Source: a virus
Lineage: Duplodnaviria > Heunggongvirae > Uroviricota > Caudoviricetes
DNA length: 64,000 nt
Direction: 5' to 3' (one strand)
Virus record (IMG/VR): IMGVR_UViG_3300028833_006001
Span: 1-64,000 of that record
In this document: one piece after another, positions 28,931-60,299 of the stretch
Position numbering within the stretch: position 1 is the stretch's first letter
Layout: each line of letters starts with the position of its first letter
Program-made: the position numbers and the translations under genes
The notes under the pieces: model-generated
Told to the model about the DNA's origin: nothing
Databases searched by the model: none
The model's input: the letters and a program-made list of their open reading frames with translations, nothing else

Positions 28931-29977
28931 TTATGATACATACCAAGAAGGTGGATTTTTTTCTAAAGGACATTTTTTAAATATATCCCTTGACCATTTT
29001 AATATTTTTATTTTTTTATTTATATTCCAAGATGATATATCTCCATCAAATTTAGAATTATAAAACATTTTTATCATATTAGTAACATTACTTACATCCC
29101 ATTTTGATATATCTTTATTAAAAATTGAGTTACAAAACATATACTCCATATTAACAACTTTACTTACATCCCAAGACGATATATCACTATTAAAGTTAGA
29201 ATAAGAAAACATATAACTCATATCAATAACATTACTTACATCCCATTTTGATATATCTTTATTAAAAATTGATCTAAAAAACATATAATCCATATCAGTA
29301 ACTTTACTTACATCCCATTTTGATATATCTTTATTAAATTTAGACTGTGTAAACATAAAACTCATATTTTTAACTTTACTTACATCCCAAGAAGATATAT
29401 CTCTATTAAATGATGAATAAATAAACATCTGTGACATATTAATAACATTACTTACATCCCAAGACGATATGTCACTATTAAAGTTAGAATTAGAAAACAT
29501 ATAACTCATATTAGTAACATTACTTACATCCCAAGATGATATATCTCCATTAAATTTAGATTGTGCAAACATAACATGCATATCAGTAACATTACTTACA
29601 TCCCAAGATGATATATCACCATTAAATTCAGAACTAGAAAACATTCTACGCATATTAGTAACATTACTTACATCCCAATCTGATATATCACCATTAAATT
29701 CAGAAGATTCAAACATACTATCCATATTAGTAACATTACTTACATTCCAAGATGATATATTTCCATTGAATTTTGAATTTTTAAATATATCAGTCATATC
29801 AGTAACATTACTTACATCAATATCATTTAAATCAGCCTTATTTCCTCTTTCTTCAATAAGTTTATCTACTAAAGATTTAAGTTCTTCTCTATCTTTAGGA
29901 TGATAATGATATACAGGTTTATTAATATCCTTATTTAAATGTAATTTCTCTATTATATAATTATTTAAATTTTTCAT
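28931..29977 (-). CDS. leader-family protein with DUF285/BspA-type leucine-rich repeats (about 10 repeats of D(I/V)SxWDVSNVTNMxxMF)
   Basis: The true start is probably the internal Met giving MKNLNNYIIEKLHLNKD; the ORF track extends it to 30043. Then come HPKDREELKSLVDKLIEERGNKADLNDIDVSNVTDM and tandem WDVSNVTNM repeats. Confidence 0.7.
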   Translation of the reverse strand: MKNLNNYIIEKLHLNKDINKPVYHYHPKDREELKSLVDKLIEERGNKADLNDIDVSNVTDMTDIFKNSKFNGNISSWNVSNVTNMDSMFESSEFNGDISDWDVSNVTNMRRMFSSSEFNGDISSWDVSNVTDMHVMFAQSKFNGDISSWDVSNVTNMSYMFSNSNFNSDISSWDVSNVINMSQMFIYSSFNRDISSWDVSKVKNMSFMFTQSKFNKDISKWDVSKVTDMDYMFFRSIFNKDISKWDVSNVIDMSYMFSYSNFNSDISSWDVSKVVNMEYMFCNSIFNKDISKWDVSNVTNMIKMFYNSKFDGDISSWNINKKIKILKWSRDIFKKCPLEKNPPSWYVS

Positions 29978-29978
29978 A

Positions 29979-30431
29979 TTATTTAACAAACATAGCGAAT
30001 AAATAAAATCCATTATTATCTGGGTCCCAATATAATATACCATTTTCAGAACCTCTTAATTGTACATTTTTTAATCTATATAAAATTGTTGAACTATAAT
30101 TTTGTTTTATATATTTAATATATTCAGATACTTCTTCTGTTTCTTGTAAATAATTATCTTTAATATCTTCATCAAGATTAGAATTATTTTTTAAATCTTT
30201 TAACTTATCAGTATAATATTTTACATTATTAACATTATTATTTTTTAACCATGTATAAATTTCTCCAATAAATAAATTTCCGCTTGCTAATAAAGTATTA
30301 TCTTTTTTTGTTTTATCAATAAGACCAAACATATATGAAATTTCATTAGATAATTCAATAATATCTTTATTAACTTTAATATCTTTATTAAGATGAAGTT
30401 TTTCTATTATATAATTATTTATTGTTTTCAT
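29979..30431 (-). CDS. leader-family protein (MKTINNYIIEKLHLNKDIK), C-terminal domain unknown
   Basis: Conserved N-terminal leader. The start overlaps the stop of its neighbour. Confidence 0.6.
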   Translation of the reverse strand: MKTINNYIIEKLHLNKDIKVNKDIIELSNEISYMFGLIDKTKKDNTLLASGNLFIGEIYTWLKNNNVNNVKYYTDKLKDLKNNSNLDEDIKDNYLQETEEVSEYIKYIKQNYSSTILYRLKNVQLRGSENGILYWDPDNNGFYLFAMFVK

Positions 30432-30432
30432 T

Positions 30433-30948
30433 TTATTTTAATAAATTTTCAATTTTATCGATTTTATTTTCATCAAAAATAATTTCTTTATGATCTTTAT
30501 TAAATGATATTTGAATTTCTTTTCCTTCAAAATCTTTCCATCCATTAGGAGTAAAACCTAATTTATTAATAAAATCAAATTTTTTATTTTTTTTAATATA
30601 ATCAATTGCATCAATAGATTCATCTTTTGTAAGTATTATTTCAATATTAATGTCATCTATTATTGAATAAAAAAATTTACTTTTATCTTTTTTTGTCATA
30701 TTAATTATTTTATTAGTTACATGATGATTACCAGTAATAAATTTATATTGAATTTCTTTTTCATTAACACTAATAATTTCACAAACATCAAGTCCAATAG
30801 AATTTACTTTATCTTTATTCATAAAACTTTTATTATCCCAATTATAAAGAGATAAAAGTAAACATTTATCTCCTTTATTATATATATTTAAAATAATATC
30901 CTTATTTAAATGTAACTTTTCTATTATATATGCATTTAAATTAATCAT
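30433..30948 (-). CDS. leader-family protein (MINLNAYIIEKLHLNKDI)
   Basis: Conserved leader. 171 aa. Confidence 0.6.
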   Translation of the reverse strand: MINLNAYIIEKLHLNKDIILNIYNKGDKCLLLSLYNWDNKSFMNKDKVNSIGLDVCEIISVNEKEIQYKFITGNHHVTNKIINMTKKDKSKFFYSIIDDINIEIILTKDESIDAIDYIKKNKKFDFINKLGFTPNGWKDFEGKEIQISFNKDHKEIIFDENKIDKIENLLK

Positions 30949-31331
30949 TTTCTATGTCTAAAAACTTTTTTATCAAAATCGAATTTACTTATATAAAATG
31001 AAGGTCTTATTCTAAGTCCATAATTTGTAACAAATATTTCACTAAACCAATCTGATCTACCAAAACCATCATTATAAAATTTATCTTCTAATTGTTTATA
31101 CCATTGTTTATCTCCTATATAAAAATGTACACAAATTTCATTTCTATTATTTAATTTAATATCAAAATCATCTTTTTCTAGATTTGGTACTTTTAAAAGA
31201 AAATCATATACACCATCTAAAGCAGATTTTAATACTTTTTCATTTGCTTCTTGTGAATCAAATGTATCTAAGTTTTTATTGTCTTTATTTAAATGTAATT
31301 TTTCTAATATATATTTTGATAAATTATTCAT
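30945..31331 (-). CDS. leader-family protein (MNNLSKYILEKLHLNKDNK)
   Basis: Conserved leader. 4-nt overlap with the upstream gene. Confidence 0.6.
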   Translation of the reverse strand: MNNLSKYILEKLHLNKDNKNLDTFDSQEANEKVLKSALDGVYDFLLKVPNLEKDDFDIKLNNRNEICVHFYIGDKQWYKQLEDKFYNDGFGRSDWFSEIFVTNYGLRIRPSFYISKFDFDKKVFRHRK

Positions 31332-58432: not shown

Positions 58433-58448
58433 TTTAATATATATAATT

Positions 58449-58682
58449 TTAATACCAACTAATCCATTTAAATCTTTTTATTTTATCTATGTTTTTAAAT
58501 AACATAATTAATCTAAGATCTATTAATTGAAGAAATGTTACAAGAATAACATTTCCTTTAAATAATATTTTAGGTAATGTCTTATTTAAAATTCCTTCTG
58601 ATGCATAATCATATTTAGGAAATTTTTCTAAAACATTAAAATTATCATAATTATTTGTTGAAATATTATTCTTTTTATCCAT
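58449..58682 (-). CDS. small hypothetical protein (77 aa)
   Basis: ORF only. Confidence 0.3.
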   Translation of the reverse strand: MDKKNNISTNNYDNFNVLEKFPKYDYASEGILNKTLPKILFKGNVILVTFLQLIDLRLIMLFKNIDKIKRFKWISWY

Positions 58683-59701
58683 TAAGCAACTTCTTTAAAT
58701 TTTTCTAATTTACTATCAATATCTTTAAATATTAAATCAAGTTTTTCTTTAGTTTTTAAATAATCTTCTCTTTGGAAACCAAATGAAGAACCTTTTGCAT
58801 TAGCTAATTTTAATTTAATATATTCTTTATAAACAAGTAATAAACCATCTTTACCACTATAATAACCTTTACCAGGTTTTACACTTGGATTATATCTTCT
58901 TTGATCTTGTAATAAATCAATTAAATATCCTACTTCATATTCATATTTAGCATATTTCATAGGATCTTTACTCATTTTAGTGGTAATTTCCATAATTTTA
59001 TTTATATACTCAGATACTTTTTCAGCCATACCATCATCAGCATCTTTCTGAGCTTTTACTTTAGCAACATATTGTTTATATCTTTCTTTATTGATTTCTA
59101 ATATTCTTTTATACTCCCATTCTCTTGTTTCTTCATCATTAAAAATATTAAAAGCACCAGATTTATTTATATCTCTTTGTTTTATTTTTTTATCTTCAAC
59201 AAATTTAGTTAGATCAATAAGATAATATTCATTAGTTAAATAATCAAGTGCTTCACCTGGTTTAATATATTTACCACCAGCAATTGTATAATTTGAATTA
59301 AAACTGAAATAACATGGTCCAGACATTAAAGCACCAAGATATTTTATATCAGCATTTTTATCATCATTTAATAAAATAACTAATCCTTTAAAATGATTTG
59401 ATCTATTAGAACATATTGCTCTTACAAGTTTTAATCCTTCTTCATCATCTTTTTTATATTTTGTAAAATCATCATCAGTTATTTTATCCCAACCAATACC
59501 AGATCTTTTACCAAATACAGCTCTAAATGTACTAGTAACATCAGCACTACTATATTTTTCTAATCCTCTTTTTTCATGATTTTTTGTTATTCTATCATTA
59601 AATTGTTTACTTATTTCACGAAGAATTGAAGAACTAAAACTTTCATTAATCATTAGTTCTGCATATAAATTATCATTAATATATTCTAATATTGTTTTCA
59701 T
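58682..59701 (-). CDS. hypothetical protein (339 aa) with short-form leader (MKTILEYINDNL)
   Basis: Leader pattern. Confidence 0.45.
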   Translation of the reverse strand: MKTILEYINDNLYAELMINESFSSSILREISKQFNDRITKNHEKRGLEKYSSADVTSTFRAVFGKRSGIGWDKITDDDFTKYKKDDEEGLKLVRAICSNRSNHFKGLVILLNDDKNADIKYLGALMSGPCYFSFNSNYTIAGGKYIKPGEALDYLTNEYYLIDLTKFVEDKKIKQRDINKSGAFNIFNDEETREWEYKRILEINKERYKQYVAKVKAQKDADDGMAEKVSEYINKIMEITTKMSKDPMKYAKYEYEVGYLIDLLQDQRRYNPSVKPGKGYYSGKDGLLLVYKEYIKLKLANAKGSSFGFQREDYLKTKEKLDLIFKDIDSKLEKFKEVA

Positions 59702-59892
59702 TAACCAAATTTTAATAATCTTTTTATATCACTTTGTCTTATTGATTCATACATTTGTTGTTCATTATAAGTCTCTCCATTTGGAGCCTTTGCTTCTCTA
59801 TTCCATTGAACAGTATTTTGTTCCCAATAATTTTTAGTTGGGTTATTCAATGATTTAGTTATATTATTTAATTTTTCAAAAATATTAATCAT
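59701..59892 (-). CDS. small hypothetical protein (63 aa)
   Basis: ORF only. Confidence 0.3.
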   Translation of the reverse strand: MINIFEKLNNITKSLNNPTKNYWEQNTVQWNREAKAPNGETYNEQQMYESIRQSDIKRLLKFG

Positions 59893-59894
59893 AA

Positions 59895-60299
59895 TTAAAA
59901 TATTTTATATCTAGGATATTGTGGTATAGTCCAATATTTATAATCCATTATATGTTGTTGACCTTTATATGGTCCAATTTTTATTGATTCTATGATACCA
60001 TATTCTTTTAATCCACAGAATAATTCTACTTGCTGTCCTGTTTTTCCTGGCCAAACTAATTCTCTTATTTTATCTTTACTAGCTGTTCCATCAAGACTTT
60101 TTAAACAAATATAAACCGCATACCAAGGTTTATTTTTTTGAACTCCATTTTCTTTTCTTGTTGATTTTCTATTGTTATAGAATTTTTCAGGAAATTTATT
60201 TATATCATCAGCTTCACCAAACCAATAATCTTTTTCAATTACTTTTATATCTTTATTAAGATGAAGCTTTTCAGTTAAAAATATATTAATTGTTTTCAT
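59895..60299 (-). CDS. leader-family protein (MKTINIFLTEKLHLNKDIKV)
   Basis: Conserved leader. Confidence 0.6.
   Translation of the reverse strand: MKTINIFLTEKLHLNKDIKVIEKDYWFGEADDINKFPEKFYNNRKSTRKENGVQKNKPWYAVYICLKSLDGTASKDKIRELVWPGKTGQQVELFCGLKEYGIIESIKIGPYKGQQHIMDYKYWTIPQYPRYKIF

Follow-up and report, generated by a model that had tools for sequence, protein, structure and literature searches.

A conserved N-terminal leader peptide, putatively capsid-targeting, on unrelated and exchanged cargo genes of an uncultured jumbo phage

Results

Twenty genes with a common N-terminal leader

The first 64,000 nucleotides of the virus record IMGVR_UViG_3300028833_006001, hereafter called the window, derive from an uncultured jumbo myovirus and contain 20 minus-strand genes (positions 28931-60299) which open with a leader of 17 residues, M-x5-Y-I-x-E-K-L-(H/K)-L-N-K-D, followed by a gene body that is referred to here as the cargo. 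EKLHL is present in 18 of the 20 leaders and EKLKL in two. Leaders of the form M-x5-Y-I-x-E-K-L-H-L-N-K-D are termed class 1, and a shorter form, MK-x-[IL]-x-x-Y-I-x-E, is termed class 2 (Table 1).

An initial annotation of the window had recorded the element as a 32-nt DNA repeat at the 5' end of at least 18 genes, a count which the 20 leader genes found at the peptide level bear out. The 32-mer as quoted has 10 matches at up to three mismatches versus none in shuffled sequences, all of which are minus-strand gene starts read in reverse complement on the plus strand, and each of the 12 positions originally listed falls inside a mapped leader. The 33-nt core TATATAATAGAAAAACTTCATCTTAATAAAGAT is present in 10, 13 and 17 copies at up to 3, 5 and 7 mismatches, respectively, all on the coding strand, against 0.05 in simulated sequence. 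The two synonymous sub-families that had been proposed are equally seen, with Leu14 encoded by CTT in 13 genes and by TTA in five; the codon for Leu12 is CTT or CTC in 13 leader genes and TTA in five.

The boundaries between the genes are tight or overlapping, as had also been noticed, with class-1 start codons located between -14 and +16 nt from the upstream stop codon, which is overlapped by seven class-1 starts and separated by 1-3 nt from another 10. From the gene geometry only, we infer translational coupling along the arrays of leader genes. Terminator-like hairpins were found solely outside the arrays, which fits co-transcription of the array genes. The 30 nt upstream of class-1 ATG codons are A/T-rich and do not contain a Shine-Dalgarno-like purine tract.

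The phage itself is large and AT-rich (19-38% G+C), and the window also encodes a tail sheath, a tail tube and a family-B DNA polymerase, but no tRNA genes. A DNA-level search of the GenBank phage collection retrieved no similar phage and no close relative, and the closest capsid proteins of GenBank phages are just 32-39% identical, namely those of the cultured jumbo Sphingomonas phage PAU (34.5%), the Tenacibaculum phages PTm1 and pT24, the Lak phages and LR756500. Closer relatives are metagenome contigs only. One of them, IMGVR_UViG_3300028591_003737 (169.6 kb; hereafter R1), shows approximately 78% (77.8%) DNA identity over an 8.6-kb structural block; further related contigs span 364, 410 and 473 kb, the last of which includes locus L159.

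A wider leader family surrounds the 20 genes. A start of the type M-x5-[YF]-[IL]-x-[ED] occupies residues 1-10 in at least 28 of the 71 open reading frames (ORFs) of the window, compared with a background of 0.0025 per position, and is found in none of the recognised structural proteins of the window. In relatives, the class-2 leader heads runs of up to 15 genes adjoining the protease gene.

Table 1. Leaders, arrays, class-2-tagged genes and head genes of the window.
Feature	Leader or motif	Coordinates	Strand	Gene	Remark
Class-1 leader	MKNLNNYIIEKLHLNKD	29927..29977	-	28931-29977	DUF285 gene; TTA/TTA codon subtype
Class-1 leader	MKTINNYIIEKLHLNKD	30381..30431	-	29979-30431	
Class-1 leader	MINLNAYIIEKLHLNKD	30898..30948	-	30433-30948	81% identical cargo copy behind EKLRINKD leader in 473-kb contig
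Class-1 leader	MNNLSKYILEKLHLNKD	31281..31331	-	30945-31331	
Class-1 leader	MINLNKYIMEKLHLNKD	31748..31798	-	31331-31798	85% identical cargo copy behind EKLRINKD leader in L159
Class-1 leader	MNNLNTYIIEKLHLDKN	32247..32297	-	31791-32297	
Class-1 leader	MNNLKQYILEKLHLNKN	32641..32691	-	32299-32691	
Class-1 leader	MININTYILEKLHLNKD	33072..33122	-	32694-33122	
Short leader variant	MKTLLEKLKLDKN	34517..34555	-	34205-34555	
Class-1 leader	MKELNLYIIEKLHLNKD	38973..39023	-	38577-39023	
Leader variant	MIEIINYINEKLKLDNE	40860..40910	-	40260-40910	DUF285-like gene
Class-1 leader	MKNINKYIIEKLHLNQN	41616..41666	-	41205-41666	
Class-1 leader	MKELTTYITEKLHLNKN	41978..42028	-	41666-42028	
Class-1 leader	MNNLSQYILEKLHLNKE	51189..51239	-	50790-51239	
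Class-1 leader	MESLKQYIIEKLHLNKD	51781..51831	-	51241-51831	quoted core matched exactly
Class-1 leader	MKQINNYIIEKLHLNKD	52247..52297	-	51818-52297	
Class-1 leader	MNNLSQYIIEKLHLNKD	53205..53255	-	52722-53255	quoted core matched exactly
Class-1 leader	MKEFKTYIIEKLHLNKN	53941..53991	-	53248-53991	DUF285 gene; leader a low-confidence appendage in AlphaFold model
Class-1 leader	MKELKTILLEKLHLNKD	58382..58432	-	57986-58432	gene absent at same site in relative L007
Class-1 leader	MKTINIFLTEKLHLNKD	60249..60299	-	59895-60299	
Array A		28931..33122	-		eight consecutive leader cassettes, no internal terminator; four in R1
Array B		41205..42028	-		two cassettes; three in R1, six or more in L020
Array C		50790..53991	-		five leader cassettes, split by class-2-tagged NDK gene
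NDK gene	MKTIVQYIKE (class 2)	52294-52713	-		leader an N-terminal add-on; Pfam NDK domain from residue 18
HAD-family hydrolase	MKSLLQYINE (class 2)	39025-39666	-		domain from residue 22
300-aa gene	MKTIVEYIHTILE (class-2-like)	34872-35774	-		paralogue of C-terminal half of 35771-37279
339-aa gene	MKTILEYIND (class-2-like)	58682-59701	-		kept in relatives
Major capsid protein, gp23 type		24199-25932	-		Gp23, E 3.3e-29
Prohead protease, T4 gp21 type		26051-27802	-		Peptidase_S77, E 8.8e-10; fused to scaffold region
36-nt tandem repeats	QNW[VI][CT]EEFAPEV	26514-26796	-		8-10 copies; scaffold part of 26051-27802

Conservation of the peptide and of the DNA

The repeat encodes a conserved peptide leader at the N-terminus and is not a DNA element. 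Across the EKLHL codons, 20 synonymous and no non-synonymous differences are observed, in line with the initial proposal that the constraint acts mainly on the peptide. The same annotation had considered the leader conserved at the nucleotide level; the DNA repeat is indeed present, but its identity is no higher than codon bias predicts. When the 18 actual leader peptides were back-translated with the codon frequencies of the genome and the mean pairwise identity was taken as expectation, an identity of 0.765±0.008 was obtained for the 51 nt of the leader and of 0.826±0.011 for the 33-nt core, compared with observed values of 0.777 and 0.8265, respectively. Conservation begins exactly at the ATG codon, with none upstream. 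Neither frame-independent nor extra-coding conservation nor conservation above the coding expectation was detected, unlike what a non-coding DNA or RNA element such as a promoter, an operator or the end of a mobile element would show.

The codon usage is close to one codon per amino acid for most of the residues concerned: Glu is encoded by GAA (96%), Lys by AAA (90%), His by CAT (94%), Asn by AAT (95%), Asp by GAT (94%) and Tyr by TAT (99%), with a choice confined to Leu (TTA 66%, CTT 29%) and Ile (ATT 50%, ATA 47%). A peptide under selection combined with such usage yields a conserved DNA tract of 33-51 nt, and conservation at the DNA level is a by-product of peptide and codon bias. For sequence scans this carries the lesson that in very AT-rich genomes a conserved peptide together with codon bias can fully explain a DNA repeat. 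Identical tracts of 30-50 nt, initially described for every gene start, are the exception, as an exact run of at least 31 nt is shared by just four of the 153 leader pairs; exact shared runs have a median length of 12 nt and reach 37 nt at most.

The leader as a detachable tag on unrelated cargo

As judged by BLASTP, the cargos of the 20 leader genes are mostly unrelated to each other, with the exception of three DUF285 proteins and one weak pair, the genes starting at 29979 and 31331. DUF285 (BspA-like, Pfam PF03382) is recognised in 53248-53991 with an E value of 1.8e-90, and its homologues 28931-30043 and 40260-40910 bring the family to only three of the 20 leader genes. Among metagenome homologues of DUF285, some have the class-1 leader, others that of class 2, and others no leader at all. 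The protein of 53248-53991 was modelled with AlphaFold (mean pLDDT 93.7). Its repeat domain scores above 93 and residues 1-20 score 56-63, with residues 4-11 forming a short helix that is followed by coil and does not pack against the domain; on this model, the leader is a separable add-on outside the cargo fold. The DUF285 gene 28931-30043 contains 11 copies of a 72-nt repeat (29016-29818), and its paralogue 53248-53991 is 67% identical.

Diverse cargo follows the leader in public data as well. An exhaustive search of 1.84 billion cluster representatives with a leader profile gave 333 matches, versus eight fragments only for a 44-column profile in a word-indexed search. The leader core begins at residue 7 in 138 of the 148 best hits retrieved, and clustering the cargo of 141 of the retrieved leader proteins produced 102 clusters, 79 of them singletons. 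A tblastn search of GenBank phages with a 23-residue leader returned nothing. In six public leader proteins (P0067, P0071, P0115, P0137, P0190 and P0193), a further leader, fully conserved, is located internally, which gives these proteins the look of two cassettes joined in frame; putative internal protease sites would fit such an arrangement.

With respect to cargo function, Pfam, PHROGs and PADLOC yielded nothing usable except DUF285 and detected no toxin or defence domain. A weak match to phrog_7673 'internal head protein' (E 0.006, residues 1-76) was obtained for the gene 29979-30431; the PHROGs and Pfam searches gave no such homology for other cargos. Sequence searches of the PDB found no informative match for the cargo of 59895-60299 and nothing usable for the class-2-tagged gene 34872-35774, and a homologue search for a deeper alignment of a non-DUF285 cargo recovered four close homologues only.

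Genome-specific leader variants and exchange of cargo

The second half of the leader differs between genomes: it reads EKLHLNKD in the window and R1, EKLKINK-S in 31993_000442, EKLHLKKG in 29305_007168, EKLKIS in 12979_000140, EKLNLSK in 21431_002079 and EKLRINK in the 473-kb contig. Leaders of one genome that precede unrelated cargo are more alike (identity 0.667) than leaders of different genome groups that precede homologous cargo (0.487), and for residues 10-17 the corresponding values are 0.82 and 0.55. The leaders evolve in concert within a genome, which, in combination with the junction profiles described below, fits the joining of incoming cargo to a resident leader.

When related genomes are compared, as the initial annotation had itself advised, the content of the arrays is not invariant at sites flanked by conserved structural genes. 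In addition to the differences in cassette number given in Table 1, the segment of array C from the lysozyme gene to NDK holds three cassettes in the window, two in R1 and five in L020. That recombination at the leaders swaps cargo, as had been proposed, is supported by this variable content and with jumps in identity at the leaders of four cassette orthologues (nucleotide identities throughout, except for the leader-plus-linker and cargo values of 50790-51239, which refer to amino acids; the junction sample consists of four or five cassettes).

The most complete profile is that of 51241-51831 compared with R1 (L001:7300-7890), in which identity amounts to 45% upstream, 72.5% in its own leader, 50% in the linker and 94.6% in the cargo, and then, in the next leader downstream, to 92% over codons 1-8 and 78% over codons 9-17 before it drops to 44%. 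In R1, the copy belongs to another array and neighbours a RecA-like gene. The gene 51241-51831 is an exchanged cassette, with its junctions just after its own leader and inside the leader of the next gene. The cassette 50790-51239, compared with R1 at the same site, is diverged upstream, 52% identical over residues 1-27 and 93% over residues 28-149. Two cassettes have counterparts in L159: for 30433-30948, identity is 38% upstream, 73% in its own leader and 92-93% in the cargo, with the next leader identical over codons 1-8 and divergent thereafter, and for 31331-31798 it is 45% upstream, 75% in its own leader and 91-96% in the cargo and stops at the stop codon/next start codon. A fifth pair, starting at 32299, is less clear (leader 71% versus cargo 78-83%). 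Upstream DNA of the four orthologues is 38-52% identical. In three of the four cassettes, identity extends as far as the stop codon and is lost either where the leader of the following gene begins or within it. The cassettes 30433, 31331 and 32299 are adjacent in the window and lie in three arrays on both strands of the 473-kb contig.

As the leader differences are partly synonymous, for example GAAAAGTTACATTTA versus GAAAAACTTAGAATC, the leaders have been replaced rather than adjusted by point mutation, and cargo of 94-95% identity within a backbone of 77.8% indicates recent exchange. Because intergenic DNA is absent between the abutting genes, neighbouring cassettes have no sequence in common but the leaders. 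The exchange junctions lie at the 3' end of a cassette's own leader and at or inside the leader of the next gene; incoming cargo would thereby become joined to a leader of the resident type and the leaders would stay alike within a genome. That the leaders mediate the exchange is what we infer from these profiles, and it would be the natural reading of them.

A conserved N-terminal trafficking module followed by hypervariable C-terminal cargo that is swapped at the boundary is characteristic of loci for polymorphic toxins and effectors, phage MuF-domain toxins among them. The leader genes resemble such loci in the conserved N-terminal module and the hypervariable, exchanged cargo, but differ in that the module is a short peptide and not a domain and that toxin or immunity domains were not found in the cargo.

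Discussion

A putative capsid-targeting propeptide

As a description of the system, an uncultured and much enlarged version of the T4-type arrangement, in which a capsid-targeting leader is combined with variable cargo, fits best. In the T4 record, IPII and IPIII begin with exactly MKTYQEFIAE, and in 95 kb of T4 (233 ORFs) the N-terminal motif is found in IPII, IPIII and gp61.1 only. The T4 gp61.1 gene (L036 18966-19130) encodes an uncharacterised protein of 54 residues whose start, MKTFKEFIKE, is close to the T4 leader. In the same record, gp23, gp24 and gp22 contain the sites FLTE|A, LLRE|S and LIAE|A, respectively, which are known to be gp21 cuts. The T4 capsid-targeting sequence (CTS), MKTYQEFIAE, is removed by a single cut of the prohead protease (PMC8442874), suffices to package foreign proteins (PMC8442874; PMC3012670; PMC5694885) and is the only feature that T-even internal proteins have in common (PMC3012670).

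The comparison with T-even internal proteins, already drawn in the initial annotation and made here with IPI, IPII, IPIII and Alt of T4, fits in the leader pattern, the I-x-E end and the types of capsid protein and protease. As in T4, a leader of approximately 10 residues stands at the N-terminus in the same register (MKTYQEFIAE versus M-K-x-[LI]-x-x-Y-I-x-E), ends in I-x-E, where T4 is cut by a protease of the gp21 type, and precedes unrelated, fast-evolving cargo in a phage with the same type of capsid protein and protease. On the other hand, dozens of tagged genes lie in a single 64-kb window compared with a handful in T4, a conserved extension of seven residues, KLHLNKD, follows the putative cut site, and the cargo is acidic and includes enzymes and BspA-like repeat proteins, while IPI-III of T4 are basic. 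Packaging and cleavage are known for T4 and are predicted from sequence for the leader described here.

The protease-scaffold fusion at 26051-27802 is a candidate for both the enzyme and the docking partner of the leaders. Its scaffold repeats hold ten W-[VI]-x-E motifs, an aromatic-[VI]-x-E pattern like the Y-I-x-E of the leader, and the capsid protein retains in all relatives an N-terminal stretch, ...YAAIHEIHE|S, which is followed by a variable region; IHEIHE|S, with its I-x-E motifs, is a candidate maturation site. In the proposed sequence of events, the leader would dock the cargo onto the scaffold core, the T4-type prohead protease would cut the leader after Y-I-x-E, and the cargo would stay in the capsid for delivery to the host.

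A parallel exists in PAU (L158, 95-125 kb of the record), where a start of the type MK[TS][LI]xxL[YF]E is found in at least 13 of the 41 genes around portal, protease, scaffold and capsid, including gp142 and gp154, labelled 'internal capsid protein' in GenBank, and gp152, labelled 'scaffolding'. The window and PAU have in common the capsid protein family and a head-gene cluster with an N-terminal leader, which in PAU ends in L-Y-E, and in four PAU leaders an extension, LYE-x-KLNE (E-x-K-L-N-E), recalls the E-K-L-H-L-N of the window. Unlike the leader of the window, that of PAU differs in sequence and ends at residue 9, and long arrays of unrelated small cassettes are absent from the PAU region examined. 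In giant phages such as phiKZ-like phages and SPN3US, N-terminal propeptides target many head and ejection proteins and are cut by the prohead protease (PMC5694885), with a variable number of paralogues. These propeptides are mostly longer than 100 residues and belong to true paralogues, unlike the 10-17-residue tag on unrelated bodies described here.

On this basis the leader is somewhat more likely than not a capsid-targeting propeptide, and the explanation as a whole, a conserved peptide leader that is putatively a capsid tag and at which cargo is exchanged, is considered probable.

Points that weigh against this explanation and alternatives

Several observations do not sit easily with a capsid destination. 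Class-1 cargo is acidic with a median pI of 5.2, compared with the basic internal proteins of T4, although basic cargo is typical and not required in T4, as the CTS also packages foreign proteins (PMC3012670). The tagged genes include the metabolic enzymes NDK and HAD hydrolase, which would be unusual capsid cargo. In class 1, the putative cut is followed by Lys, whereas T4 sites have Ala, Ser or Gly, and the most conserved part of the leader, KLHLNKD, would stay on the mature protein in a role that capsid targeting leaves unexplained. The leader motif is absent from the cultured relative PTm1 (none of 61 genes), and the label 'internal capsid protein' in PAU is an annotation for which no experimental source was found.

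The acidic cargo and the tagged enzymes would suit an N-terminal tag that serves interaction or localisation and has nothing to do with the capsid, such as a helix binding a cytoplasmic partner of host or phage; the tagged proteins would then act in host interaction or anti-defence and not be packaged. The six proteins with a fully conserved internal leader would be compatible with such a tag as well, as would the genome-specific class-1 extension next to scaffold repeats that hardly vary within the clade, with one copy fewer in a 99.85% identical strain (571 versus 583 residues). This invariance deprives a test for co-variation between leader variants and scaffold of its power, and it implies that the partner that co-varies with the extension, if there is any, is not the scaffold. 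The closeness of the leader to the T4 CTS in length, register and terminal I-x-E, the S77 protease and gp23-type capsid protein encoded by the phage, the parallel PAU leader on proteins annotated as internal capsid or scaffold proteins and the location of the arrays in late structural operons adjoining head genes all speak for the capsid instead, and a tag without relation to it is regarded as rather unlikely.

The exchange of cargo at the leaders has its own difficulties. Leaders share only brief stretches of exact homology (median 12 nt), and two of the upstream junctions fall not inside the leader but 20-30 nt beyond it. Any modular exchange that preserves genes will, besides, place junctions near gene starts. 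Moreover, a strain that is 99.85% identical over 10.7 kb has the same eight-gene array A with no rearrangement, differing in the scaffold repeat only, so that shuffling is not rapid but slow relative to point mutation. An ordinary paralogue family, arising by tandem duplication with fast divergence outside the N-terminal helix and with plain gain and loss of genes instead of leader shuffling, would account for the adjacency of the genes on one strand, the weak similarity between the cargos of 29979 and 31331, and two neighbouring R1 genes that both begin with MININNYI; fast divergence as such is documented by some orthologues of 30-56% identity between genomes that are 78% identical in DNA. 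However, the cargo types are unrelated, with DUF285 repeat proteins beside small proteins of no detectable similarity, a single DUF285 family occurs with a class-1, a class-2 or no leader, and the array and the strand that hold a cassette vary from genome to genome. A conserved N-terminus would moreover predict the reverse of what is seen, namely cargo of 91-96% identity behind own leaders of 72-75%, and common descent by duplication alone appears improbable.

Codon choice is the observation that a peptide constraint gives no account of. In every genome group (window and loci L001-L033), class-1 leaders favour ATA for Ile8 (82 of 93 cases) and mostly use CTT for Leu12, compared with backgrounds of approximately 47% for ATA and approximately 29% for CTT, at which class-2 leaders remain; this preference counts against the peptide as sole explanation. 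Its persistence across diverged genomes, together with TATAAT-like and TTAATAAAG strings within the leader, would suit a repeat that acts as DNA or RNA, with the peptide being incidental; such a repeat might serve as promoter, as operator or enhancer of translation, or as the recombination site of a dedicated enzyme. Yet variation is nearly all synonymous, including a switch between TTA and CTT that alters two to three bases, and the agreement of DNA identity with back-translation and the lack of conservation upstream of the ATG codon argue in the same direction. Sigma-70-like sites are no more common than in shuffled sequence. A promoter function of the leader was rejected: TTAATAAAG is common to the leader and the candidate late-promoter motif TTATTTTTAATAAAGTAA, but the motif is intergenic and needs a T-run, which the leader does not possess, and the leader matches TTAATAAAG because its sequence codes for L-N-K-D. 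Activity as DNA or RNA is accordingly seen as very improbable.

Implications

Returning to the leader as a putative capsid tag, its use for loading would imply that a large and fast-changing set of proteins enters the host together with the phage DNA, and such an injected protein set, if real, would be a likely place for new anti-defence and host-takeover functions. The evolutionary mechanism would be compact, as a functionally retained peptide would supply the only homology between abutting genes and thereby set the swap points. A wider picture, which we regard as speculative, is that in a clade of very large phages (contigs of 170-473 kb) one short address peptide loads hundreds of unrelated, fast-evolving proteins, enzymes and BspA-like proteins among them, into the capsid and also serves as splice point for cargo exchange between genomes, with its second half (HL, KI, RI, HLKKG) acting as a genome-specific code kept uniform by recombination. 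If true, no other phage would be known with an injected proteome nearly as large or as modular. With respect to applicability, the leader might provide a short portable tag for the packaging of proteins into capsids, as the T4 CTS already does.

Further features of the window and its relatives

The motif TTATTTTTAATAAAGTAA occurs on the minus strand at the intergenic positions 26025, 27852 and 61193, upstream of the capsid gene, the protease gene and a gene for a protein of 287 residues, respectively, and may represent a late promoter. Shorter variants of the TTTTTA[AT] type are located upstream of other genes, often after a hairpin and a T-run.

Concerning the host, many of the JAFRDD01 contigs that carry arrays of this clade (L048, L050, L066 and others) belong to a GTDB species representative, 'MAG: Clostridia bacterium RGIG2387 Goat_Ileum-4', a bin which may contain phage DNA binned with a bacterium or may offer a hint at the host. 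A pattern scan of bacterial genomes was discarded as a means to find the host, as the pattern was too loose and its matches were mostly due to chance, with real arrays only in the goat-ileum 'Clostridia' bin.

The gene 35771-37279 (502 residues) consists of a cytidylyltransferase-like gene fused to a second gene, the paralogue of 34872-35774. R1 has both parts as separate genes (L018 7033-7848 and 7850-8770), and the leader of the second gene survives inside the fusion as ...SEYIKESLIVEGG.

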